From Desulfobulbus sp. (lineage in GTDB: Bacteria; Desulfobacterota; Desulfobulbia; Desulfobulbales; Desulfobulbaceae): 24,000 nt of DNA. The stretch is from the NCBI GenBank assembly GCA_050252135.1, contig JBFWLN010000001.1:341721-365720 (forward strand), written 5' to 3'. This document shows positions 6,340-22,098 of this stretch, piece after piece. The translations under genes and the position numbers were made by a program. Numbering within the stretch: position 1 is the stretch's first letter; each line of letters opens with the position of its first letter. Below the pieces are notes generated by a model. The model made no database searches. It was not told the DNA's origin and saw nothing but the letters and a program-made list of their open reading frames with translations.

Positions 6340-7113
6340 CTATTTCACAAAAAACAACCCGATCTCGATGGCGATCAGGATGATGATGATCCACTCGAGC
6401 ATGCTCGAATGACTGTGTTTCTGTTCATCGGCCATCATCTCCAACAACTCCTGGATGACCTCCAAACGACTTTTCAGCACCGTGGCCCGGGGGGCTATCT
6501 CCAGATAGCGGGCGAGTGCGAGGTAATAATGCTCAAGCTCTGGATATTCCCAGATAAATTCAGGAGTATCCAACAAGTTATATTGCAAGATGATGTGTGA
6601 TTTTTCCAGGTAAACCCGTCCCCGTTCCTGGGCCAGCTTAGTCCGCGACAGGGCAATGGTTCCCTTCTTCGCCAGGGTCTCGGGGATATATTTGGTTTTC
6701 TTAATTGTCTCCTCGATTGAGGATTCAAAAAAAGCCAACTTGGTGGACTGAGCCAGAGCATGGCTCAAGGAGAGACAGGTCAACTCGGACAGATCATCCA
6801 CATCGATCAAGTCGTTGCGAATTTTTACCCCTTTACTGGGACTCAGTTGATAGGCCAGATCCTCCTCGACAAAGGATTCCCGTGGATTAATCGCATATTT
6901 GAGCACTTGATCGATCAACCGCTTTTCCGATTCATAGTCGTACTCAAAGAAGACGCAAACCCCGTAATCAAAAAGGAAGGCCCGTACGCCCTCGTCTGGA
7001 TTGAGGGAAATGACATTACGGATGCGAGCGGCGTGTGTCTGCCGGGAAAGATGCTCATAGAGGGCACTGAATTGAAAACGTTCAGCAATGCAGAGGGCGC
7101 GAATGGTACTCAT
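6340..7113 (-). CDS. RMD1/DUF155 family protein with a C-terminal TM helix
   Basis: 257 aa with the typical DUF155 layout (FDYGVCVFFEY..., LSHALAQSTKLAFFE, YLEIAPRATVL) and a terminal hydrophobic helix WIIIILIAIEIGLFFV. The family call is from memory. Confidence 0.75.
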   Translation of the reverse strand: MSTIRALCIAERFQFSALYEHLSRQTHAARIRNVISLNPDEGVRAFLFDYGVCVFFEYDYESEKRLIDQVLKYAINPRESFVEEDLAYQLSPSKGVKIRNDLIDVDDLSELTCLSLSHALAQSTKLAFFESSIEETIKKTKYIPETLAKKGTIALSRTKLAQERGRVYLEKSHIILQYNLLDTPEFIWEYPELEHYYLALARYLEIAPRATVLKSRLEVIQELLEMMADEQKHSHSSMLEWIIIILIAIEIGLFFVK

Positions 7114-7155
7114 GGTTGATTCCGTTCAGGAATAAAAGGCTGGATGAGAAACGCT

Positions 7156-7593
7156 CTACTCCGTGCCGTTGGCACCGACCTTGCTTTCCTTGCGCAGTTC
7201 CGGGTAGTACTTTTCGATACAATCGGGGCAGATGCCGTGGGTGAATTCATCCTTGGCGCGATCTTGGATGATCTGCTTGATATCCTCCCAAAATTCGGGG
7301 TCAAGACGTATCTTCTTACAGGAGGCGCATACCGGCAGGATGCTTTCTAAATAACTTACCCGGGTCAGCAACCGGTAGGTATGGTGAATAATGAAGGCAC
7401 CGACAATGGCAATAATGATGCTCTCAAAGATGGATTCCCGCCAATTGATCGGGGTGGCGGGACCACCCAAAAGAACATGGGGGATATCAAGCACCTCGTC
7501 AAACCAGGAGAGGGCGATCACAAACAAAATGGCGCTGCCCTCATACCAGGCGACCTTTTTGGCAATCAGATTGTTCGTCTCAGAAGGGGCCAT
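7156..7593 (-). CDS. Small two-TM membrane protein with a C-terminal CxxCKKIR...HGICPxC Cys4 module
   Basis: 145-aa ORF with an RBS GAGGA 7 nt upstream of the ATG. It has two hydrophobic segments followed by LPVCASCKKIRLDPEFWEDIKQIIQDRAKDEFTHGICPDCIEKYYPEL. Confidence 0.7.
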   Translation of the reverse strand: MAPSETNNLIAKKVAWYEGSAILFVIALSWFDEVLDIPHVLLGGPATPINWRESIFESIIIAIVGAFIIHHTYRLLTRVSYLESILPVCASCKKIRLDPEFWEDIKQIIQDRAKDEFTHGICPDCIEKYYPELRKESKVGANGTE

Positions 7594-8072
7594 GGCAACA
7601 TCCTCAGTTCAAACAAGCACTTGGGGTCATTCCCTGGAACAGCCGGGGCAATGTTTGTGATTCTCGCAACATGCAGCGAAAATCACAATATTTGATTGAG
7701 CGGTCTCCAAAGCGATAACGCACTCAAAAAAAGCGTGGTCATCGTTGGCAACGTGCATCTATCATAGCCGCATTTCCTAAGAATGCACGGGAATTACACA
7801 GATTTTCCCCAAAAGTCCCAACCGAGAATCAGGGGGATCAGCCCCTTACAGCCCTTCTTCGTCCACAGACAGAGCCGATGAGCTTTCAGGTTTCTCAGTG
7901 AAGATGGCTAAGTTAAAAAAACAGGCATACATAAGGTATATCGAGTGTCGTGAAAAGCGCTCCGACGCAGTAGATCGAAGTTTTTACGACGACATCAAAG
8001 ATGACACCAGCGCGGTAATAAGTTCAAGTTTGTGAGCTACGGGGTATATGGGCAAAGGTTGCCTTTGATCTT

Positions 8073-8318
8073 TTACTGAAAATCGACATGACCGATAACG
8101 ATTCGAGGCTCATCCAACCCAATCACCTCCGGTTCGATCCGCAGCAGCTCGTCAATGTTCCAGACGCCGTTTCGCGCAAGCAGGGCCAGGGCCTCTTCCT
8201 TGGTGTTTGCAAGGACGGTCACGTCGGCCTGGAGATAATTTTCCTGATGGATATGGGGCTCATCGAGCATGGACCAACTGGAAAAGCGCTTACTGTGACG
8301 CCAAACAAAGAGCTGCAT
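8073..8318 (-). CDS. Hypothetical small protein (81 aa)
   Basis: The ORF has an RBS GGGAGA 6 nt upstream of ATG 8318. I recognise no family. It is flanked by about 15-bp direct repeats. Confidence 0.5.
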   Translation of the reverse strand: MQLFVWRHSKRFSSWSMLDEPHIHQENYLQADVTVLANTKEEALALLARNGVWNIDELLRIEPEVIGLDEPRIVIGHVDFQ

Positions 8319-8534
8319 GATCGTTCTCCCGGGTTTGATGAGCTACGGAACAGGTGGATAAATCTACCCCGTTGAATCCAACGGTGCAAACCCAAGCTCT
8401 GGATTGCCAGGGGAAAGTGTTCAGCATTGACCTTTTTGATTGATGGTTTATAACTGGTGCCAATGTTTTCCCCGTTGTCGCTGCTGACCGTGGGCCCCGG
8501 CTTTTTTTCGGCCCCAAGGAGAGCAAAAAGAAAA

Positions 8535-9479
8535 ATGGAAATACTGATCATTGGCGCCGGAGCCATGGGGGGGCTGTTCGCCTCTTTGCTTGCGCCGCTG
8601 GCGAGCGTCTGCCTGATCACCACCAACACCGCCCACGCCGACGCCATCAACCAGAGCGGATTTCTGCTGACCGAATTGGACGGGAACACCACCTCGGTCT
8701 CCGTCCGCGCCATCAGCCAGCCAGCACTCTATCACCAACGGGCCGACCTGATTCTGATCTGCACCAAAGCCGGAGCCACAGAAGCGGCTGCTCATACCGC
8801 CAAGGCAGTTTTGGCCGATAGAGGACTGGTTCTCACCCTGCAAAACGGACTGGGCAACCTGGAACGGATCGGGGCCGTGGTCGGGCCACAGCGAGCGACT
8901 GCCGGGACCACCGCCCAGGCAGCCACCCTGCTCGGGCCCGGACACATCAGGCATGCGGGCCAAGGCTCTACCGTTTTAGCTCCAGCCAGGGGATTTCCCG
9001 ACCAGGGGCGAAAGCTAATACCCATTGCCGAGCTTTTTAACCGGGCCGGCATTATAACCAGCATCACCGAGGATATCGATGCACTGCTCTGGTCAAAACT
9101 AATCGTCAATGTCGGTATCAACGCCCTCACTGCCCTGCTGCGAATCCCCAATGGCGCTTTGCTCCTGTCTCCGGCCAGCGAACAGCTGATGTTCGAGGCT
9201 GTGGACGAGGCCCTTGCCGTGGCCAAGGTTCTCAAAATCAACATCGATTTTGATATTCAGCAGGAGCGGGTCCGCCAGGTCTGCGAACTGACCCGCAACA
9301 ACCGCGCCTCCATGCTCCAAGATATCCTTCGAGGTCGGCCCACGGAGATCGATGTCATCAACGGCACCATCGTCGCCAAAGGCATTGAAGCCAGTATCCC
9401 CACCCCTGTCAACCAAACGCTGACCCGGTTAATCAAGGCCCTGGAATCCACCTCCGCGCAACGGATCGACGCAGTTTAA
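8535..9479 (+). CDS. panE: 2-dehydropantoate 2-reductase (ketopantoate reductase)
   Basis: MEILIIGAGAMGG Rossmann N-terminus, LQNGLG, the C-terminal ASMLQDILRGRPTEIDVINGTIV motif typical of ApbA/PanE, and adjacency to panB. I prefer ATG 8535 over the longer track ORF starting at 8457. Confidence 0.85.
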   Translation: MEILIIGAGAMGGLFASLLAPLASVCLITTNTAHADAINQSGFLLTELDGNTTSVSVRAISQPALYHQRADLILICTKAGATEAAAHTAKAVLADRGLVLTLQNGLGNLERIGAVVGPQRATAGTTAQAATLLGPGHIRHAGQGSTVLAPARGFPDQGRKLIPIAELFNRAGIITSITEDIDALLWSKLIVNVGINALTALLRIPNGALLLSPASEQLMFEAVDEALAVAKVLKINIDFDIQQERVRQVCELTRNNRASMLQDILRGRPTEIDVINGTIVAKGIEASIPTPVNQTLTRLIKALESTSAQRIDAV

Positions 9480-9512
9480 CCCATTGGCAGCCCCTCTTTT
9501 TAAGGAGAATTC

Positions 9513-10355
9513 ATGCAACCCAAAAAGCTGACCATCCCTGATATCAGAAACCGCAAAAACGACACCCCGATCGCCGAGCTGACCGCCTATGATTATCCCT
9601 GGGCCAAGGTTGCAGATACCGCCGGGATCGATGTCGTACTGGTGGGAGACAGTCTGGGCATGGTGGTGCTGGGCTATACGGATACGGTTTCCGTGACCAT
9701 GGAGGAGATGATTCACCACACCAAGGCGGTGGTCCGCGGGGTGGAACGGGCCCTGGTGATAACCGACATGCCTTTTGGTTCCTACAACAGCTCGATTCCA
9801 GCGGCGATCAACAACGCCAACCGTATTCTCAAGGAAGGGCGGGCCGATGCGGTGAAGCTCGAGGGTGGGGTCTCCATGGCCGGAACCGTGGCAGCCATCG
9901 TCAATGCCGGGATTCCGGTGCAGGGACATATCGGCCTCACCCCGCAAACCGCGACCGGCCTCGGCGGCTTCAAGGTCCAGGGGAAAAGCGCTCAGGCGGC
10001 CAAACAGCTGCTCGACGATGCCAAAGCCCTGGAGGATGCAGGTTGTTTTTCCATAGTCCTTGAGGCCATCCCCGCTCCCCTGGCCGAGCGTATCACCCAG
10101 GCCATCTCCATTCCGACCATCGGCATCGGCGCCGGCCCCAACTGTGACGGCCAGGTGCTGGTGATTCACGACCTGGTGGGGTTATACGACCGTTTCACCC
10201 CAAAATTCGTCAAACAGTACGCCAATATCAACGAACCGATCCTGGAGGCCCTGCGCCAGTACAAGGCCGAGGTGGAGAACCGCACCTTTCCCACCGAGGC
10301 CCACAGCTTTACCATGAAATCAGAAGAACTGGACAAACTGCTCCAGCTCTACTGA
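9513..10355 (+). CDS. panB: 3-methyl-2-oxobutanoate hydroxymethyltransferase
   Basis: 280 aa containing LTAYDYP, VLVGDSLGMVVLGY, KLEGG, GHIGLTPQ and IGIGAG, the canonical PanB motifs. Confidence 0.95.
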   Translation: MQPKKLTIPDIRNRKNDTPIAELTAYDYPWAKVADTAGIDVVLVGDSLGMVVLGYTDTVSVTMEEMIHHTKAVVRGVERALVITDMPFGSYNSSIPAAINNANRILKEGRADAVKLEGGVSMAGTVAAIVNAGIPVQGHIGLTPQTATGLGGFKVQGKSAQAAKQLLDDAKALEDAGCFSIVLEAIPAPLAERITQAISIPTIGIGAGPNCDGQVLVIHDLVGLYDRFTPKFVKQYANINEPILEALRQYKAEVENRTFPTEAHSFTMKSEELDKLLQLY

Positions 10356-14006: not shown

Positions 14007-14041
14007 AAAAAAAAACCCCCGTCGGCAGGCGCCGACGGGGG
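14007..14041 (-). terminator. Attenuator terminator between the leader peptide and ilvB
   Basis: Minus strand: CCCCCGUCGGC / GCCU loop / GCCGACGGGGG, a perfect 11-bp stem (14016-14041), followed by U9 (plus-strand A9 at 14007-14015). It sits 38 nt upstream of the ilvB ATG. Confidence 0.85.
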
Positions 14042-14069
14042 TTGAATTCACTTGTGTAAACGTTTCCCG

Positions 14070-14168
14070 CTAAGGCGCCTCGAACCGTGCACGCACCACG
14101 ACCACCACACTCACGACCACGAGTGCGAGGGAAACGATGATGTTGCTGATACTGGATACGGTTTTCAT
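14070..14168 (-). CDS. ivbL: Val-rich leader peptide of the ilvBN operon (IvbL-like), 32 aa
   Basis: My own translation of the minus strand gives MKTVSSISNIIVSLALVVVSVVVVVRARFEAP*, with 10 Val, 3 Ile and 2 Leu. It is too short for the ORF track. It is followed by the terminator above. It has the same length and AP end as the E. coli IvbL sequence as I recall it. Confidence 0.75.
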   Translation of the reverse strand: MKTVSSISNIIVSLALVVVSVVVVVRARFEAP

Positions 14169-14184
14169 GGTTGCCTAAACGGAA

Positions 14185-14633
14185 TTATAATTCCCAGAGC
14201 GGGAATGATGATTCTTGATACCCAAGGTTAGCTTTTTCGTCAAGAAGAATGTTTCCTAAAAAAAACAAATAATGTAACAACGGACCAAGATCCTGCTGAT
14301 CAAGCCGAATCAAGCCCTGTGTCCGGGCAGCTCCATGGCGAATCGGTACTCCTCCGTTGTGATTTCCCCGTCCAACTCCGGAAAACCACTCGCGCCCCGC
14401 CACGGGCGACAGCACTGCCCCAGAGGGTACAGTTGGGCAGCCCATGGCCTGCAGTTCAAGCATGCCCTCGACAGAATCGGTTCACCCGCCAGCCGGTCTA
14501 CCTGGCATTGTCGAGGGCAGAATGTGCAGGAGGTCAACAGCGCATGCGTGGTAGCAAACCGCAGCTGCAGCTTACCCGTATCCTGAAAGACTGAGCAGCT
14601 AGGATCATGAAGAGGCTCTCTAACAATTGAATA
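14185..14633 (-). pseudogene. Decayed remnant of a PflX-like (COG1313-type) radical-SAM activase
   Basis: One frame gives ...QDTGKLQLRFATTHALLTSCTFCPRQCQVDRLAGEP, which fits the N-terminal C.LCPR.C.V.R..GE signature. A second frame then gives RFCRG (expected G.C..G). Later fragments are GEITTEEYRFAMEL in the first frame and MLELQAMGC in the third frame. The span is far too short for the ~330-aa enzyme, and I found no intact CxxxCxxC cluster motif. Confidence 0.35.
14215..14243 (-). promoter_or_regulatory. Sigma70-like promoter candidate for the ilvBN leader
   Basis: Minus strand: TTGACG (14243-14238), a 17-nt spacer, then TATCAA (14220-14215). A perfect TATAAT also lies inside the palindrome at 14181-14194. 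Confidence 0.4.
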
Positions 14634-14755
14634 AAAACCGTAGGGCTCTCCAGCATGCAAACGCCCAAAAAACACAACGGAGAAAATAAACTGGCTCAAA
14701 CCAAGCCAGTGCATTACGTTATTCACATCTACCCACTGAACAACAGGAAATATCC

Positions 14756-14944
14756 ATGCAACCGATTTCCTCTTTTCCTCAGGCAGCTTCTCCGAAACCT
14801 TCAGCCGTACCAACGCTGCAAGCGCACCTCACCGAGGCCCCCTGCTGAGGCCCGAAATCGGAGCCCCGGGCCGGGGTTCATGAACGTGCGGGCTATACCC
14901 TTTGTCCTTTTGTCTTAGGTTTTACCCAAACCCTGATTGGCCCG
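14756..14944 (+). other. Candidate N-terminal extension of hgcA, in frame with it and interrupted only by TGA 14846-14848
   Basis: ATG 14756 has AGGAAA 5 nt upstream. Translation: MQPISSFPQAASPKPSAVPTLQAHLTEAPC-TGA-GPKSEPRAGVHERAGYTLCPFVLGFTQTLIGPVPQ..., continuous with hgcA. See the findings. Confidence 0.4.
14858..14883 (+). promoter_or_regulatory. SECIS-like stem-loop candidate downstream of the in-frame TGA
   Basis: GAGCCCC / GGGCC loop / GGGGUUC, a 7-bp stem (14861-14879). A 3-bp lower stem is possible (14858-60 with 14881-83, A14880 bulged). The apical loop starts with GG, 22 nt from the U of UGA. Confidence 0.3.
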
Positions 14945-15928
14945 GTGCCGCAAATTGCCACAACACCAAATCGTCATGATATCTGGGGAACGATTGGTGC
15001 CCGCATCGGCCTCATCCGCAGTCATTATAGGGTTACTCCCGGTCTCTACGCCATAGGATCGCCAGCACCAGAGGATCCTGTCCTGGTCACGGCCAACTAC
15101 AAACTGTCCTTTGACGCCCTCCGCCACCAGCTTACCGGTGTCAATGCATGGATCATGGTGGTCGACACCCGAGGGATCAACGTCTGGTGTGCGGCAGGGA
15201 AAGGTAGTTTTTCTTCCCAGGAGGTCATCGAAAGTATCCAGCGGTTTCAGTTAGGTGAAATAGTTTGCCACCGCGAACTGATCCTGCCGCAACTGGCGGC
15301 AACCGGGGTTTCTGCTCAGGAGGTCAAAAAAGGTTGTGGCTGGTCCATACTTTTTGGCCCCATTCGTGCCTCAGACCTGCGCTGTTACCTCCAACACGGC
15401 AAGGTTGCCGACGAGACCATGCGCGAGGTCACTTTCACCCTCAAAGAACGCCTGGAACTCATTCCAGTGGAATTATTCCTGCTTGGCAAGCCGCTTTTCC
15501 TTCTTTTGCTGCTGGGTTTTGTCCTCTCAGGAATCGGGCCGAATATTTTTTCCTTGAGTAGTGCATGGCACAGAGGGTTGCTGTTTTTCGCTGCCACTCT
15601 CATGGGCATTATCAGCGGAGCCGTTGTCACCCCCGTGTTCCTTCCCTGGCTTCCCTGTCGTCAATTTTGGCTCAAGGGGGCATGGGCATCCTTGCCGGTT
15701 GTGGCCTGTGCGCATGCATTGTTTTCTGCCCTCTCTGGGGCAAATCAACTAGCCCTTTCCCTGTGGATCGTAACAATCAGCTCCTACTTAGCGATGAATT
15801 TCACCGGTTCCACCCCGTTTACCTCCCCTAGCGGGGTTGAGCGGGAAATGCGACGCGGCCTGCCGTGCCAAAGCTTTATTGCCCTGGCAGCATTGGGTCT
15901 TTGGCTGATGGCACCCTTTTGGACTTAA
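14945..15928 (+). CDS. hgcA: Mercury methylation corrinoid protein HgcA (core from the first canonical in-frame start; the true N-terminus is probably upstream)
   Basis: The cap-helix signature GINVWCAAGKG (N(V/I)WCA(A/G)GK), PGLYAIG and VLVTANYKLSFDALR lie in a CFeSP-like domain. About 5 C-terminal TM helices follow. hgcB follows 9 nt later. Confidence 0.9.
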   Translation: MPQIATTPNRHDIWGTIGARIGLIRSHYRVTPGLYAIGSPAPEDPVLVTANYKLSFDALRHQLTGVNAWIMVVDTRGINVWCAAGKGSFSSQEVIESIQRFQLGEIVCHRELILPQLAATGVSAQEVKKGCGWSILFGPIRASDLRCYLQHGKVADETMREVTFTLKERLELIPVELFLLGKPLFLLLLLGFVLSGIGPNIFSLSSAWHRGLLFFAATLMGIISGAVVTPVFLPWLPCRQFWLKGAWASLPVVACAHALFSALSGANQLALSLWIVTISSYLAMNFTGSTPFTSPSGVEREMRRGLPCQSFIALAALGLWLMAPFWT

Positions 15929-15937
15929 GCGAAACAG

Positions 15938-16225
15938 ATGAAAGGATATCAATATCTTCGAGGAGTAGCCACTCTCCAGGTCTATCAAGAACGTTGCATT
16001 GGCTGCGGCGCCTGTGTTCAGGTGTGCCCGCACCGAATCTTGACCTTGACCGGAGGCAGGCTTGTGGTGCGAGAGAGGGACCTATGCATGGAATGCGGGG
16101 CCTGCGCCCGAAACTGCCCGACGGAGGCCGTCACGGTGACCCCGGGCGTGGGGTGCGCGATGGCCATCCTCGGAGCGTGGATAAATCGTTTTTTTGGCAG
16201 AAAGATGTTTTCCGATTGCTGTTAA
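15938..16225 (+). CDS. hgcB: Mercury methylation ferredoxin HgcB (2x[4Fe-4S])
   Basis: 95 aa with CIGCGACVQVCP, the HgcB-diagnostic CMECGACARNCP, an extra conserved Cys in GVGCA, and a C-terminal CC pair (...SDCC*). Confidence 0.9.
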   Translation: MKGYQYLRGVATLQVYQERCIGCGACVQVCPHRILTLTGGRLVVRERDLCMECGACARNCPTEAVTVTPGVGCAMAILGAWINRFFGRKMFSDCC

Positions 16226-16244
16226 CAAGTGGGTATCCAACTCA

Positions 16245-17219
16245 ATGAACGAGCAATTTCCCCGACCCAGAATTCTTGTCAGCCGGTGTTTGGGTTTTGC
16301 AGCCTGCCGTTACGACGGCGCGATTCTTAAAAATAGTTTTGTCGAACAGTTGCAGTCCCAGGTCGACCTGATTCCGGTCTGCCCGGAGGCCGACTGTGGC
16401 CTAGGCATTCCCCGGCCGCCAATCCGGCTCTGTAGCTCCGAACAGGGATTGGTTGTCTACCAGCCTGCGACAAGCCGCGATGTCACCGCCCGGCTGCAGG
16501 CTATGATCGCAACCATTCTCACCGAAAATCCTCAGGTGGATGGCGCCATATTAAAAAGCAAGTCACCCAGCTGTGGCCTATTTGACGCCAAGATCTACCA
16601 GGGGGTCGAAAAGCCGCAGCCGCTTGGGAAAGGAGCCGGTGTTTTTGGGGAACAGGTTTTGCGGCACTGCGTCGGGGGGGCCATCGACGACGAGATGCGC
16701 TTAACCAACATTATCCTCCGCGAGCATTTTTTGATCAAGGCCTTTACCCTGGCCCGCATCCGGGAGTTGAGCACGCGACCGACCATGGGAGCGCTTGTAG
16801 CCTTTCATGCCAGCCACAAACTGCTTTTTCTCGCCTATAATCAGAGCCATTTCCGCCTTGCGGGCAAGATCGTGGCCAACCAGGAGAAACTGCCGGTCGC
16901 CGAGGTGGTTCAGCGTTATCGTGAGCAACTGGTGCATATCCTGGAAACACCGATGCGCATCCCCGGGGTGATCAACACCCTCTACCATGCATTCGGCTGG
17001 ATTTCCGAGCATCTGGGAGCAGAAGAAAAACAGTACCTGATCAACACCATCGAAGAGTACCGCGATGAGCGCCTACCGCTGCAGGCGGTCACCCGTTTAA
17101 TCGAGGCCCACGCCCTTCGATTCAGCAACGAATACCTTCTCAGCCAAATTTTCCTTCGTCCTTACCCCCGCGCCCTGGCTGGTTTGCACGATTCCGGCCG
17201 GGGGCGCGAGGTCCGCTGA
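16245..17219 (+). CDS. DUF523 (TudS-like [4Fe-4S] desulfidase fold) / DUF1722 (YbgA-like) fusion protein
   Basis: ILVSRCLGFAACRYDG, PVCPEADCGLGIPRPP and KSKSPSCGL are the DUF523 Cys motifs. The C-terminal half (FHASHKLLFLAYNQSHFRLAGKIVAN) is YbgA-like. ATG 16245 lies 19 nt after the hgcB stop. Confidence 0.75.
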   Translation: MNEQFPRPRILVSRCLGFAACRYDGAILKNSFVEQLQSQVDLIPVCPEADCGLGIPRPPIRLCSSEQGLVVYQPATSRDVTARLQAMIATILTENPQVDGAILKSKSPSCGLFDAKIYQGVEKPQPLGKGAGVFGEQVLRHCVGGAIDDEMRLTNIILREHFLIKAFTLARIRELSTRPTMGALVAFHASHKLLFLAYNQSHFRLAGKIVANQEKLPVAEVVQRYREQLVHILETPMRIPGVINTLYHAFGWISEHLGAEEKQYLINTIEEYRDERLPLQAVTRLIEAHALRFSNEYLLSQIFLRPYPRALAGLHDSGRGREVR

Positions 17220-17230
17220 GGACGGCGCGT

Positions 17231-17626
17231 TCAATTTTCCTGAGATTGACTTTGAATCGTCTTCAACAAGGCTTGCAAGCCGATAGCCTGGAGCACTGTC
17301 AAACATTCATCATGATGGAAGAATCCGGCCATAACTGCGGCAAACTGGGTGGCAAGAAAGACCATCTCGCCGTCTTCCTCCTTGGCCAGTAAACGACGGC
17401 ACCCGGCGATATCATCGGTTTCCACCGCTCCGATGATATCGTTGAGCCAATCGAGCTGACTCTCCTCAAAATGAAACTCCACCATGGCCTGGGCGTACAT
17501 GGATACAATCGCAGCCCGGTGGTCGTAAATGGCATCCAGATCATTCTCCTGGGCAGCGTCCAGCACCTGTTCAATCTGCTCCAGCAGTTCCTGAACATCC
17601 TGATTTTCCTGATTTTCTTCATTCAT
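17231..17626 (-). CDS. Small acidic hypothetical protein (131 aa)
   Basis: ATG 17626 has AGGAGA 6 nt upstream. The protein is strongly acidic and helical (MNEENQENQDVQELLEQIEQ...). It is the last gene of the pta-eamA operon. I recognise no family. Confidence 0.55.
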   Translation of the reverse strand: MNEENQENQDVQELLEQIEQVLDAAQENDLDAIYDHRAAIVSMYAQAMVEFHFEESQLDWLNDIIGAVETDDIAGCRRLLAKEEDGEMVFLATQFAAVMAGFFHHDECLTVLQAIGLQALLKTIQSQSQEN

Positions 17627-18546: not shown

Positions 18547-20682
18547 TCAATCAGCAAGACGCGTTGTTGGTGGCAGCGCTGAAGCCTCAACAGACAGCGC
18601 CTGAGCCTGAATGGCGGTGATAGCCACAGTGTTGACGATGTCGGAGACGAGACAGCCACGGCTGAGATCGTTAACCGGTTTGTTGAGCCCCTGAAGGATC
18701 GGACCGATGGCCACGGCTCCAGAGGACCGCTGCACGGCCTTGTAGGTGTTGTTGCCGGTATTGAGGTCGGGAAAAATAAAGACACTGGCACGGCCCGCCA
18801 CTTCGCTCTCGGGCATTTTTTCATGCGCCACCGACAGATCAATGGCAGCATCATACTGGATTGGGCCGTCGATCTTCAAATCAGGACGGTGTTGTCGAGC
18901 CAGTTCCACCGCACGGCGCACTTTATCAACCTCCTCCCCCTGTCCGGAAGTACCGCTGGAATAGGAAAGCATGGCCACGATCGGCTCGATGTTGAACATG
19001 GCCGCAGTTTCCGCAGAGCGGATGGCGATTTCCGCCAACTGCTCGCTGTTTGGATTGGGATTGACCGCGCAGTCCCCGTAGACCAGCACCCGGGTATCCA
19101 GGCACATGAAAAAAACACTGGAGACCACTGACACCCCAGGTCGGGTACGAATGATCTGAAAGGCCGGCCGCACCGTATGCTGGGTGGTATGCACCGCCCC
19201 CGAAACCATGCCGTCGGCATAGCCGGTATGGACCATTAGTGTGCCGAAATAGCTGACATCATTGATAGCATCACGAGCGTAATCCCGAGTGGACCCCCTA
19301 TGCTTGCGGGCCTGATAGAGGCTTTCAACCAACTCCTCACGCAGGGGCGAGGTCCTGGGATCGATGATAGCCACATCCTGAAGTTTCAAACCCAGGGCCG
19401 CAGCTCGGCTGCGGATGGTCTTCTCCTCACCGAGCAGGGTTAAGTTAACCACTTCGCGGGCACGTAGGATCTCGGCTGCCTGGAGGATTCGGTCCTCCTC
19501 GCCCTCTGGAAAGACAATATGCTTGCGATCGGCGCGGGCTCGCTGAAAAAGGGTATATTCGAACATCAAGGGCGACATGGTGGTGGTCACGGTTTCAATC
19601 ACCTGCTGTTCCAGGGCGGTTGCATCAACGTGGCTCTCGAACACACCCAAGGCGCGGGCTATTTTTTGCGCGTTCCTGGGCCGCAGGGTTCCCTTAACGG
19701 CCGCGGCGCGGGTGGCGGCAGTATAGGTATCTCCGGGCATGAGATAAATCGGCAAGGGGAGGTCATCGATCCCATTGAGTAAACGAACCATGGATGAACT
19801 CGGCTCCAGATTGCCGGAGAGCAACAGGCCCGCAGGGGTTGGATAATTACGTGAGGCAATCGCCCCCAGGGTGGCAAAAATGATATCCGGACGATCGCCG
19901 GGCGTGACCACCAGATCATCCTCCTCAAGAAAATCAATGTAATTGGCCGGACTCATTGCCGCGACCTTGATTGCATGGACATCACGCTGCAACCCGGCCT
20001 CTGGGCCGCTGAAATGGCGGGCACCGAGATCCTCGATAATCTCTTCCATGGTCGGCATGCTGAATCCATGCATTTCGGGCAAAAAATCAAGCCGATAAGG
20101 TCCCCCCTGATGGTTTGCTCGAATTTCCGATTCAGCCGTTTGCAGCAGATCGGGATCGATCCGATTCACAAACACAGCCAACAATGGACACTGGTACTGC
20201 TCGTAGAGCTGTTCAGCTATGCGGATATTTTCTTCTATCTCCTCAATATTCCGCTCATGGCCATTCACCACATGCAGGGTAGGAGCTCCCAATTCCCTGG
20301 CGATGCGAATACTGATGTCGTAGTCAAAAGCCTCGGACATACCAACAATGTTAGGCCCTTCACAGAGAAGGAAGTCGCATTTTTTCCGAACCTCTCCATA
20401 TTTGCGCACGATCTCCCGAAAAAGGAGCCGTTCCTCGCCATCAGCGATCAGCGTGCGGGCCAGTTCGTGACTGACCCCGGCCATTTCATCAAAACGCAAA
20501 GTAAGACCATAACGATCCTTAATCAGAGCAATATCATTATCCTCACGACCATCGCCGGAAATAATCGGCCGAAAAAAGCCGATCCGTTCGATTCGTCGTG
20601 AGAGCAATTCCATAACCCCAAGGGTTACCACCAGTTTGCCACACTCTTTTTCAAGATTGGCGATATACAAACAGTCTGCCAT
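18547..20682 (-). CDS. pta: Phosphate acetyltransferase, long form (N-terminal DRTGG/P-loop-like domain plus PTA domain)
   Basis: About 711 aa. The C-terminal half matches the E. coli Pta motifs as I recall them (GAVHTTQHTVRPAFQII, YGDCAVNPNP, MLSYSSGTSG, FIFPDLNTGNNTYKAVQRS, PVNDLSRG). ATG 20682 has AGGTGA 5 nt upstream. Confidence 0.95.
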   Translation of the reverse strand: MADCLYIANLEKECGKLVVTLGVMELLSRRIERIGFFRPIISGDGREDNDIALIKDRYGLTLRFDEMAGVSHELARTLIADGEERLLFREIVRKYGEVRKKCDFLLCEGPNIVGMSEAFDYDISIRIARELGAPTLHVVNGHERNIEEIEENIRIAEQLYEQYQCPLLAVFVNRIDPDLLQTAESEIRANHQGGPYRLDFLPEMHGFSMPTMEEIIEDLGARHFSGPEAGLQRDVHAIKVAAMSPANYIDFLEEDDLVVTPGDRPDIIFATLGAIASRNYPTPAGLLLSGNLEPSSSMVRLLNGIDDLPLPIYLMPGDTYTAATRAAAVKGTLRPRNAQKIARALGVFESHVDATALEQQVIETVTTTMSPLMFEYTLFQRARADRKHIVFPEGEEDRILQAAEILRAREVVNLTLLGEEKTIRSRAAALGLKLQDVAIIDPRTSPLREELVESLYQARKHRGSTRDYARDAINDVSYFGTLMVHTGYADGMVSGAVHTTQHTVRPAFQIIRTRPGVSVVSSVFFMCLDTRVLVYGDCAVNPNPNSEQLAEIAIRSAETAAMFNIEPIVAMLSYSSGTSGQGEEVDKVRRAVELARQHRPDLKIDGPIQYDAAIDLSVAHEKMPESEVAGRASVFIFPDLNTGNNTYKAVQRSSGAVAIGPILQGLNKPVNDLSRGCLVSDIVNTVAITAIQAQALSVEASALPPTTRLAD

Positions 20683-21113
20683 GGAATTCACCTGGGTAAC
20701 AAAAAAATTTAAGAGAAGGACGTCGCATCTTAGTTGAACCCCACCAGCAATACAAGCCTATTTCTCTTGTATTTTCAAGCCAATGGACCTGATAACTTTC
20801 ATTTGCGCCTTGGGGTTCATCAACACAAGCTAACATACAAAATTATGCGTTACGAAAAACTAGAATGAACGTGCAATGGACAATTAGGATACACTTAATT
20901 TTTTGGACCCCATGCCTTGATTTTCTTTAGGAATTTTTTTTTTCTTGACAAGATACGAGACAGTAACGTTGTGGGACAAACTGAGTGGGGAGTCAGGAGG
21001 TGCCGAATATACTTACAGTTTATACTGAATGGCAAATCATTGTTTGGCACCCCTGAACGTCAAACTCCGCGAAAAAATGGCAAAAATCGGTATCAACACC
21101 TTGATTTTGTTCG

Positions 21114-21510: not shown

Positions 21511-22098
21511 ATGGCAGATGTAAAACCCCAGGGTAATCCGGCAGTCGTAGGTCTTGCAGGCTTTGGTTTGACCACCATGATGCTTCAGTTCCACAACCTC
21601 GGCTGGATGGGCACTGGCACAATCTTTTGTACAGCTATGTTTGTCGGCGGATTGATGCAATTCATCGCGGGTTTCCAGGAATTCAAGTGCGGCAATAACT
21701 TCGGTTATAGCGCATTCTGCACGTATGGCGGATTCTGGATGGCACTCGGCCTTATATGGGCCCTGGCCGACCTGGTACCACCAACTTGGAAACATCTGAG
21801 CATTACCGGTAATGATATCGGGTTCTTCCTTGTTGCCTTCACCTTGTACACCGTTATCATGTGGATCGGCTCCATGCGTGTGCATATGGCCATGTTCCTC
21901 ACCTTCACCACCTTGATTCTCGGATTCATCGGCCTTGACCTGGTTTTCCTGGCTGGCATGAAAGAGAGCCTGTTGAAGCTGACCGCCATTGACCTGATTG
22001 TCTGTGCATCTCTGGCCTGGTACATGATGGCTGCCGCTATCTTTGCTCAGCTGTTTGGTCGTCCAATTCTCCCTGTAGGAAAGCCTTTAGTCAACTAA
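21511..22098 (+). CDS. satP: Succinate-acetate/proton symporter, GPR1/FUN34/YaaH family
   Basis: 195 aa with six hydrophobic segments and the family signature NPAVVGLAGFGLTTMMLQ (NPAPLGL.GF..TT). The RBS GGAGA is 5 nt upstream. Confidence 0.9.
   Translation: MADVKPQGNPAVVGLAGFGLTTMMLQFHNLGWMGTGTIFCTAMFVGGLMQFIAGFQEFKCGNNFGYSAFCTYGGFWMALGLIWALADLVPPTWKHLSITGNDIGFFLVAFTLYTVIMWIGSMRVHMAMFLTFTTLILGFIGLDLVFLAGMKESLLKLTAIDLIVCASLAWYMMAAAIFAQLFGRPILPVGKPLVN

Follow-up and report, generated by a model that had tools for sequence, protein, structure and literature searches.

This report concerns a 24,000-nucleotide stretch of DNA from a Desulfobulbus species (positions 341,721 to 365,720 of contig JBFWLN010000001.1, assembly GCA_050252135.1), hereafter the window, and a pair of adjacent genes within it. 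From its sequence, the interval 14756-16225 of this window is very probably a two-gene hgcA-hgcB mercury-methylation module on a Desulfobulbus-like chromosome, with HgcA made as a selenoprotein. The initial annotation had described an hgcA-hgcB pair in which HgcA was a 327-residue protein starting at the GTG codon at 14945. The pair itself stands, and the open reading frame (ORF) is present as described, but this GTG does not hold up as the start of the gene. Judging from the sequence comparisons set out below, hgcA most likely runs from 14756 to 15928, and the 327-residue ORF is an annotation-style truncation with its start 189 nt too far downstream, beyond an in-frame TGA that is almost certainly a selenocysteine (Sec) codon. 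The window adds an orthologue to a system that is already well known, and the Sec extension is likewise in the literature, which since 2022-23 has attributed it to most HgcA proteins.

To establish which family the two genes belong to, we compared their products with the NCBIfam equivalog models. HgcA scored 413.7 bits against the HgcA model NF040863 (cut-off 275; profile positions 1-324 of 325; E = 5e-124), and the 390-residue form of the protein gave 413 bits over residues 64-388. HgcB scored 116.6 bits against NF040864 (cut-off 99; profile positions 1-93 of 93; E = 3e-34). The initial annotation had proposed that HgcA be placed against the fused paralogues and those of the corrinoid iron-sulfur protein (CFeSP) type, and this was done with competing hidden Markov models (HMMs) rather than with a tree. 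The model of the HgcAB-like fusion (NF043039) gave 204.5 bits, below its cut-off of 285, and that of the CFeSP gamma subunit CdhE/AcsC (NF003195) gave 77.9 bits, far below its cut-off of 306 and over profile positions 322-445 of 450 only.

The possibility that the pair is a corrinoid paralogue, either of the AcsC/CdhE type or from the fused lineage, standing next to a generic ferredoxin and thus no true methylator, has some apparent support in that Pfam sees only a generic CdhD corrinoid domain in HgcA and two Fer4 matches in HgcB. In addition, the only solved sequence homologues that HgcA has in the PDB sequence set are CFeSP large subunits, through their C-terminal corrinoid domains (E 3e-13). 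HgcA and the CFeSP gamma subunit (AcsC/CdhE; 2ycl, 2h9a and 4djd) do share a homologous Rossmann-like corrinoid domain, but the match is confined to residues 28-150 of the 327-residue ORF and residues 318-440 of the CFeSP chain (E 3e-13; Foldseek E 1.6e-7). HgcA lacks the N-terminal [4Fe-4S] and TIM-barrel parts of CFeSP and has instead a Cys-bearing cap helix and a five-helix membrane domain. It is a membrane protein, and its methyl donor is S-adenosylmethionine (SAM) rather than methyl-tetrahydrofolate (PMC11588087). The fusion is homologous to the window pair in its corrinoid and membrane parts, scoring 203.7-204.5 bits over residues 28-294 of the ORF (91-357 of the full-length protein), and in its ferredoxin part (47.9 bits with HgcB). 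In the window, however, hgcA and hgcB are two unfused genes, with the hgcA stop and 9 nt between them, and the HgcB tail keeps Cys73 and the terminal Cys pair. The cap-helix motif lies where the initial annotation had put it in the 327-residue ORF, with its Cys as residue 82 there and residue 145 of the full protein (equivalent to Cys93 in the numbering of strain ND132), and N142-K149 (NVWCAAGK) is invariant among 33 homologues. We regard a paralogue of either kind as extremely improbable.

AlphaFold2 modeling of residues 32-390, so that model residue 1 corresponds to residue 32 of the full protein, gave a mixed alpha/beta domain with five long helices after it, at a mean predicted local distance difference test score (pLDDT) of 80.2 and a predicted template modeling score (pTM) of 0.67. 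In model numbering the helices are H198-226, H236-263, H273-291, H297-316 and H327-358, with pLDDT mostly above 80, in line with the approximately five transmembrane (TM) helices that had been claimed. A hydropathy scan found three strong hydrophobic segments, and the remaining two TM segments would be expected to be weaker in hydropathy. The best fold match of the model in the PDB was the published integrative HgcAB model 9a0b_A (E 5e-25, 55% identity), with CFeSP chains ranking after it over some 150 residues of the corrinoid domain only. Because the HgcA and HgcB models were passed, the fusion and CdhE models failed and the fold matches 9a0b_A, the pair is identified, by sequence and predicted structure, as hgcAB and as neither CFeSP nor the fused paralogue.

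The 95-residue HgcB ORF was confirmed 9 nt downstream of hgcA, and all the features reported for it were seen: both cluster motifs, the Cys of GVGC and the terminal Cys pair. An hgcB gene follows hgcA directly on the same strand in 77 of 80 related loci. At residue 73 of HgcB, 75 of 78 loci have a Cys codon and two have TGA; Haft and Gwadz give the share of HgcB proteins with Sec at this residue as about 6% (bioRxiv 10.1101/2022.07.06.499078). The two loci with Sec73 (GVG-U) among the 78 are L070 (at about 7008-7253) and L043 (at about 6998-7243); the HgcA N-termini of both lack Sec and carry atypical motifs (LCCST, GCGCG). A Sec in the HgcA arm and a Sec73 in HgcB were never found together in 80 loci, which is anecdotal with only two Sec73 loci.

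We now consider the 5' end of hgcA. The frame of the reported ORF continues upstream through a single TGA to the ATG at 14756, reading MQPISSFPQAASPKPSAVPTLQAHLTEAPC-TGA-GPKSEPRAGVHERAGYTLCPFVLGFTQTLIGP-VPQIATT..., with APCUGP as codons 28-33 counted from this ATG. A Shine-Dalgarno-like element precedes the ATG, whereas no purine-rich element or Shine-Dalgarno sequence was found upstream of GTG 14945. For comparison, 78 related loci were taken from GTDB species representatives, and from each we extracted the 110 nt that precede the match to hgcA. This DNA is conserved in frame with HgcA across about 80 loci. In the column of the TGA, 80 sequences have TGA 51 times, TGC or TGT 28 times and another codon once, and 79 of the 80 encode Cys just before it. 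The pentapeptide at the site is PCUGP in 45 of the 51 TGA-type loci. Most Cys-type loci have xCCG(P/S/G) at the same site, and all 28 of them form a single uninterrupted ORF across it. From the TGA to the GTG, the stretch is conserved as protein, (E/K)(R/K)xG(Y/F)xLxxFVxxFxxTPxGxVP, in TGA-type and Cys-type loci alike. All 51 TGA-type loci have an upstream open frame with a start codon, and the HgcA of the closest GTDB relative (L001) begins with the same MQPI... as the extension in the window. The extension evolves as a protein, because its ratio of nonsynonymous to synonymous substitution rates (dN/dS), 0.145 against both L001 and L082, equals that of the HgcA core (0.14-0.15). The segment after the Sec is modeled by AlphaFold2 as a confident beta-hairpin (pLDDT about 91) packed on the domain.

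As a side observation, some Cys-type loci (L033, L062, L066, L074 and L069) have extra Cys-rich stretches (CSC, CC, CxxxCC) farther upstream in the arm. These Cys-rich arms agree with the "Cys packing" of Haft and Gwadz (bioRxiv 10.1101/2022.07.06.499078).

The TGA is followed by a candidate bacterial Sec insertion sequence (bSECIS), a hairpin within the coding sequence (CDS). Its apical loop GGC occupies 14869-14871, at +24 to +26 from the U of the UGA. Eight contiguous pairs lie next to the loop and there are 11 pairs in total, with a local minimum free energy (MFE) of -14.8 kcal/mol. The published bSECIS criteria are a loop of 3-9 nt, a stem of at least 4 bp, a G in the first two loop positions, a distance of 16-37 nt from the UGA and an MFE of at most -7.5 kcal/mol (PMC13188914), and the hairpin in the window falls within all of these limits. 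So do the hairpins of 47 of the 51 TGA loci, versus only two of the 28 Cys loci (Fisher p about 2e-14, for loci that are phylogenetically non-independent), and the mean hairpin energy is -11.2 kcal/mol in TGA loci versus -4.8 kcal/mol in Cys loci. In these comparisons the predicted hairpin tracks the TGA rather than the gene. Lineages use differing stems (CCCAGGUCUGGG; CCAC-GGUCCA-GUGG), and the encoded amino acids change with them.

On the alternative account, HgcA is the 327-residue protein from GTG 14945, TGA 14846 is a true stop, and the DNA upstream is a 5' leader, either a regulatory RNA hairpin or a separate 30-codon upstream ORF. The profile NF040863 begins exactly at the Val of GTG 14945, matched from profile position 1, leaving the extension uncovered. 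Gene callers and nearly all database entries take this GTG or a nearby start. Nearly all database homologues are cut short just after the TGA: none of the best 120 is longer than 350 residues, and where checked, their aligned N-termini lie at various Met or Val codons beyond it. Likewise, the gene calls for contig SRR27751818_600009 list the truncated 327-residue hgcA (and no hgcB). Against this account, the stretch is conserved in frame as protein in both types of loci, is read through without interruption where Cys replaces the TGA, has a dN/dS of 0.145 and encodes a segment modeled as confidently structured and packed on the domain. The Shine-Dalgarno sequence is at the ATG and not at the GTG, and the hairpin goes with the TGA rather than with the Cys codons. 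We therefore consider a short HgcA very unlikely, and a selenoprotein starting at ATG 14756 remains the preferred reading.

Several observations do weigh against that reading. Within the 24-kb window we found no selA, selB, selD or tRNA-Sec gene, and because of this the ability of the host to decode Sec is assumed. A six-frame scan of the window for a second selenoprotein gene (a TGA with open flanks and a hairpin) returned only the TGA at 14846 in a sensible gene context, and no convincing sigma-70 promoter was seen just upstream of 14756. In the hairpin, fixed-register covariation over the 51 TGA-type loci was modest: only 72.9% of cells pair and 15 cells have double changes, which is more than in shuffles (0/500), but slid controls score similarly. 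The signal is weak because there is little variation in the CCCC/GGGG core and one subgroup has a shifted register, and the hairpin was assessed instead by folding each sequence and applying the published criteria. Rfam matched no SECIS or other RNA family, either in the window at gathering thresholds or in 14700-15000 at E <= 10, where only chance snoRNA matches appeared. The Sec of HgcA is so far a bioinformatic prediction; the literature searched contained no experiment, such as 75Se labeling or mass spectrometry, that confirms it for any member of the family. Finally, an ND132 construct with C93 numbering methylated mercury in E. coli lysates (PMC11588087). We read this numbering as that of the short annotated HgcA, which appears active in that case; if so, activity in vitro does not strictly depend on the arm.

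The extended form has precedent. Haft and Gwadz (bioRxiv 10.1101/2022.07.06.499078; J Bacteriol 2023) reported that HgcA of ND132, of Geobacter and of 18 further sources extends through one UGA, giving proteins of 363-400 residues in which PCUGP is perfectly conserved, and that Sec machinery is present in all 20 species examined. The predicted HgcA of the window, with 390 residues and PCUGP, fits this description exactly. A 2026 review lists HgcA (CU) and HgcB (GVGU) among selenoprotein families. The coordinates of all features of the module are given in Table 1.

Table 1. Predicted features of the hgcA-hgcB module, in window coordinates
Feature	Position	Strand	Remarks
Shine-Dalgarno-like AGGAAA	14745..14750	+	5 nt before ATG 14756; upstream context ctgaacaacAGGAAAtatccATG
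hgcA, full CDS (most likely form)	14756..15928	+	390 codons including Sec31, then TAA stop; putative selenoprotein form, corrinoid membrane-anchored methyltransferase
HgcA N-terminal extension	14756..14944	+	MQPISSFPQAASPKPSAVPTLQAHLTEAPC-U-GPKSEPRAGVHERAGYTLCPFVLGFTQTLIGP; 63 codons, absent from the 327-residue ORF
TGA, almost certainly Sec31	14846..14848	+	preceded by TGC (Cys30); motif PCUGP, encoded ...TEAPC-U-GPK...
Candidate bSECIS hairpin in CDS	14858..14883	+	starts 12 nt after the TGA; core GAGCCCCGG-G-CCGGGGUUC at 14861-14879
Mechanical ORF within hgcA	14945..15928	+	GTG start, 327 residues
Cap-helix motif GINVWCAAGKG	15173..15205	+	Cys codon TGT 15188-15190
HgcA membrane domain	15440..15922	+	five predicted TM helices, full-length residues ~229-257, 267-294, 304-322, 328-347, 358-389
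hgcB	15938..16225	+	ATG start; 95-residue 2x[4Fe-4S] ferredoxin; 9-nt gap (GCGAAACAG) after the hgcA stop
First CX2CX2CX3CP of HgcB	15995..16030	+	C20-P31, CIGCGACVQVCP; Cys 20, 23, 26, 30
Second CX2CX2CX3CP of HgcB	16085..16120	+	C50-P61, CMECGACARNCP; Cys 50, 53, 56, 60
HgcB Cys73 (GVGC)	16154..16156	+	TGC codon, Cys and not Sec
HgcB C-terminal Cys94-Cys95	16217..16222	+	terminal pair

The founding, characterized pair of this family, HgcA and HgcB of Pseudodesulfovibrio mercurii ND132 (DND132_1056/1057), has the same two-gene order, cap-helix Cys and five-helix domain as the pair in the window, and its HgcB has two CX2CX2CX3CP motifs and Cys residues at the identical positions 73, 94 and 95. 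The extensions are alike as well, with ...DDAPCUGPRPDPRAGVFEKPGYAVEPFV in ND132 and ...TEAPCUGPKSEPRAGVHERAGYTLCPFV in the window. The proteins have nevertheless diverged, Pseudodesulfovibrio homologues being about 54-58% identical to that of the window (ND132 itself was not aligned), and the hosts differ, Desulfobulbaceae-like here and Desulfovibrionaceae there. In ND132 an arsR-like regulator presumably stands beside hgcAB, while none adjoins the pair in the window. Among named organisms, the nearest HgcA proteins are those of Desulfobulbus rhabdoformis (71% identity) and D. propionicus (Despr_0439, 63%), and D. propionicus 1pr3 methylates mercury. Apart from that on an identical contig (see below), no HgcA in the databases exceeds 74% identity to that of the window. 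Two Desulfobulbus-like loci, L001 and L082, share its MQ..PCUGP extension and SECIS hairpin.

The arrangement at the hgcA site also recalls other genes with a SECIS in the CDS, such as E. coli fdhF, which have a stem-loop about 20 nt after the UGA, a small loop starting with G-G/U and homologues with Cys. The fdhF loop is GGUC at +22 to +25. In hgcA, unlike genes of the fdhF type, the Sec would belong to a Cys-Sec dyad, which is a rare arrangement, and would be carried on an N-terminal arm instead of lying in a redox active site. The hairpin has a family-specific sequence that is absent from Rfam.

Biochemical work on ND132 (Zheng et al. 2024, PMC11588087) has found HgcAB to be a membrane-associated complex in which HgcB carries two [4Fe-4S] clusters. 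There SAM, and not methyl-tetrahydrofolate, methylates Co(I) to a methyl-Co(III) with Cys-thiolate ligation, and the mutagenesis summarized in that paper gives HgcA C93 and HgcB C73, C94 and C95 an important part in methylation. By homology, Cys145 of the window protein would be the cobalt ligand, and C73, C94 and C95 of its HgcB would be the thiols that handle mercury. That the pair methylates Hg(II) we infer from its family membership.

We propose the following sequence of events for the module in the window. Translation of hgcA would begin at ATG 14756, and the ribosome would decode UGA 14846-14848 as Sec, directed by the hairpin, to which SelB would bind as to a bacterial SECIS. The resulting protein, of 390 residues, would have an N-terminal arm with a Cys30-Sec31 dyad (PCUGP), then a CFeSP-type corrinoid-binding domain in which the cap-helix Cys145 ligates cobalt, and then five TM helices. 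By homology with the ND132 enzyme, HgcB would reduce the corrinoid to Co(I), SAM would methylate it to CH3-Co(III) with a thiolate lower ligand, and the methyl group would pass to Hg(II) to give CH3Hg+. The soft selenium and sulfur ligands of the HgcA arm, together with the tail thiols of HgcB, may bind incoming Hg(II) and bring it to the methyl-corrinoid. Such binding of Hg(II) by the Cys30-Sec31 dyad would follow the suggestion of Haft and Gwadz (bioRxiv 10.1101/2022.07.06.499078). A further and more tentative idea, on balance a doubtful one, is that the dyad on its flexible arm is the primary ligand for Hg(II) capture and hand-off, so that in lineages like this one the natural output of methylmercury would be gated by selenium supply and by the efficiency of SelB-dependent recoding, with Sec73 of HgcB as an alternative solution.

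The hgcAB locus is chromosomal and lies amid housekeeping genes, with panE, panB, an aminotransferase gene and ilvBN upstream and a DUF523/DUF1722 gene, a small ORF, an EamA gene and pta downstream. The order ilvBN - hgcAB - DUF523/DUF1722 - small ORF - EamA - pta is common to two Desulfobulbus-like metagenome-assembled genomes (L001 and L002) and to L082, a 528-kb ENA contig. The GC content of hgcAB (0.55-0.57) is like that of the neighboring genes, with 0.53 for the window. We considered a recent horizontal transfer of hgcAB and rejected it, the GC content being near that of the neighbors and the synteny conserved. No other genes of the syntenic block have diverged as far as hgcA and hgcB, which are at 74% and 70% amino acid identity to L082, while most neighbors are at 80% or above (panE 75, panB 96, aminotransferase 95, ilvB 89, pta 90, DUF523 81). 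Their dN/dS of 0.14-0.23 indicates purifying selection and is about twice that of ilvB (0.08-0.09).

These features bear on the possibility that the genes are true hgcAB but that mercury methylation is a side reaction, the native function being a SAM-dependent corrinoid methyl transfer to some other soft metal or metalloid, thiol or selenol, for which the Cys-Sec arm would have evolved. Such a role would be compatible with our assignment of the module. The locus is surrounded by housekeeping genes (ilvBN, panBE, pta), and no mer, ars or metal-transport genes adjoin it, its two genes are the fastest-evolving of the block, HgcAB expression is reported to be extremely low with a native role described as unknown (PMC11588087), and a wider organometallic biochemistry has been argued by Haft and Gwadz (bioRxiv 10.1101/2022.07.06.499078). 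However, HgcAB is not known to have an alternative substrate, all biochemical and genetic results to date are on mercury (PMC11588087), and the gene context reflects conserved synteny among close relatives, which carries no functional signal. On this evidence we consider a side reaction unlikely, though less so than either of the alternatives discussed above.

The gene immediately downstream, at 16245-17219 on the plus strand and 20 nt after the hgcB stop, encodes a fusion of DUF523 (2-thiouracil desulfurase-like) and DUF1722. No terminator-like site was found between it and hgcB, and it may be co-transcribed with hgcAB. The DUF523 gene is also the neighbor of hgcB in L002, L004, L006, L011, L013 and L082, but no functional link can be inferred from this because these are all close, fully syntenic relatives. 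In L001, a 2.4-kb insertion (7389-9547), absent from the window, separates the two genes; by eye it contains a HigB/RelE-like and XRE/HigA-like pair and an apparently AT-rich 236-residue membrane ORF.

Upstream of hgcA, at about 14185-14813 on the minus strand, the window has the remnant of a decayed PflX/AmmeMemoRadiSam-like radical SAM gene, of which only a 33-residue homologous fragment is left (14481-14579, 64% identity). The gene is intact (about 320 residues) and divergent, upstream of hgcA, in L001 (4779-5747, minus strand), L004-L007, L011 and L013, while L003 has only a C-terminal scrap of it. A 167-residue ORF in this region (14310-14813, minus strand) was considered as a regulator of hgcAB and rejected, as it has no family match and overlaps the 5' end of hgcA as redefined here. 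Its sole homology is the 33-residue fragment, and it is therefore not a gene.

Some further observations concern the window more widely. On the minus strand, a 32-codon leader ORF rich in Val, Ile and Leu (MKTVSSISNIIVSLALVVVSVVVVVRARFEAP, 14070-14168) precedes a terminator-like hairpin (14014-14043), which is GC-rich, 13 bp long and accompanied by a T-run; the Shine-Dalgarno sequence and ATG of ilvB (13968) come next. This looks like a classic transcription attenuator for branched-chain amino acids. Conserved versions of this leader peptide occur in L001, L002, L003, L005, L007 and L013, and in L082 it has been called as a gene of 33 residues. Farther downstream, a 195-residue ORF (21511-22098, plus strand) is 96% identical to an L082 gene with a Gpr1/Fun34/YaaH (acetate transporter-like) domain, and with the nearby pta (phosphotransacetylase; 18547-20691, minus strand) makes up a small acetate-metabolism neighborhood. 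Positions 14101-17491 of the window are 100% identical to L081 (1-3391), the 3.4-kb Logan contig SRR27751818_600009 mentioned above, and the source organism was therefore present in run SRR27751818.

The hgcAB pair is the accepted genetic marker of microbial production of neurotoxic methylmercury, and with its presence here another uncultured Desulfobulbus-like lineage joins the potential methylators. Nothing in this is new in kind, HgcAB having been known since 2013, the selenoprotein form since 2022-23 and the SAM donor since 2024. There is a lesson for annotation, however, in that the ORF visible to a reader or a gene caller (327 residues) is cut at what is almost certainly a Sec codon. Surveys, primers, HMMs and expression constructs made from the short form leave out a conserved Cys-Sec arm that possibly binds mercury. 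If the arm matters for activity, selenium availability would become a variable in models of mercury methylation.

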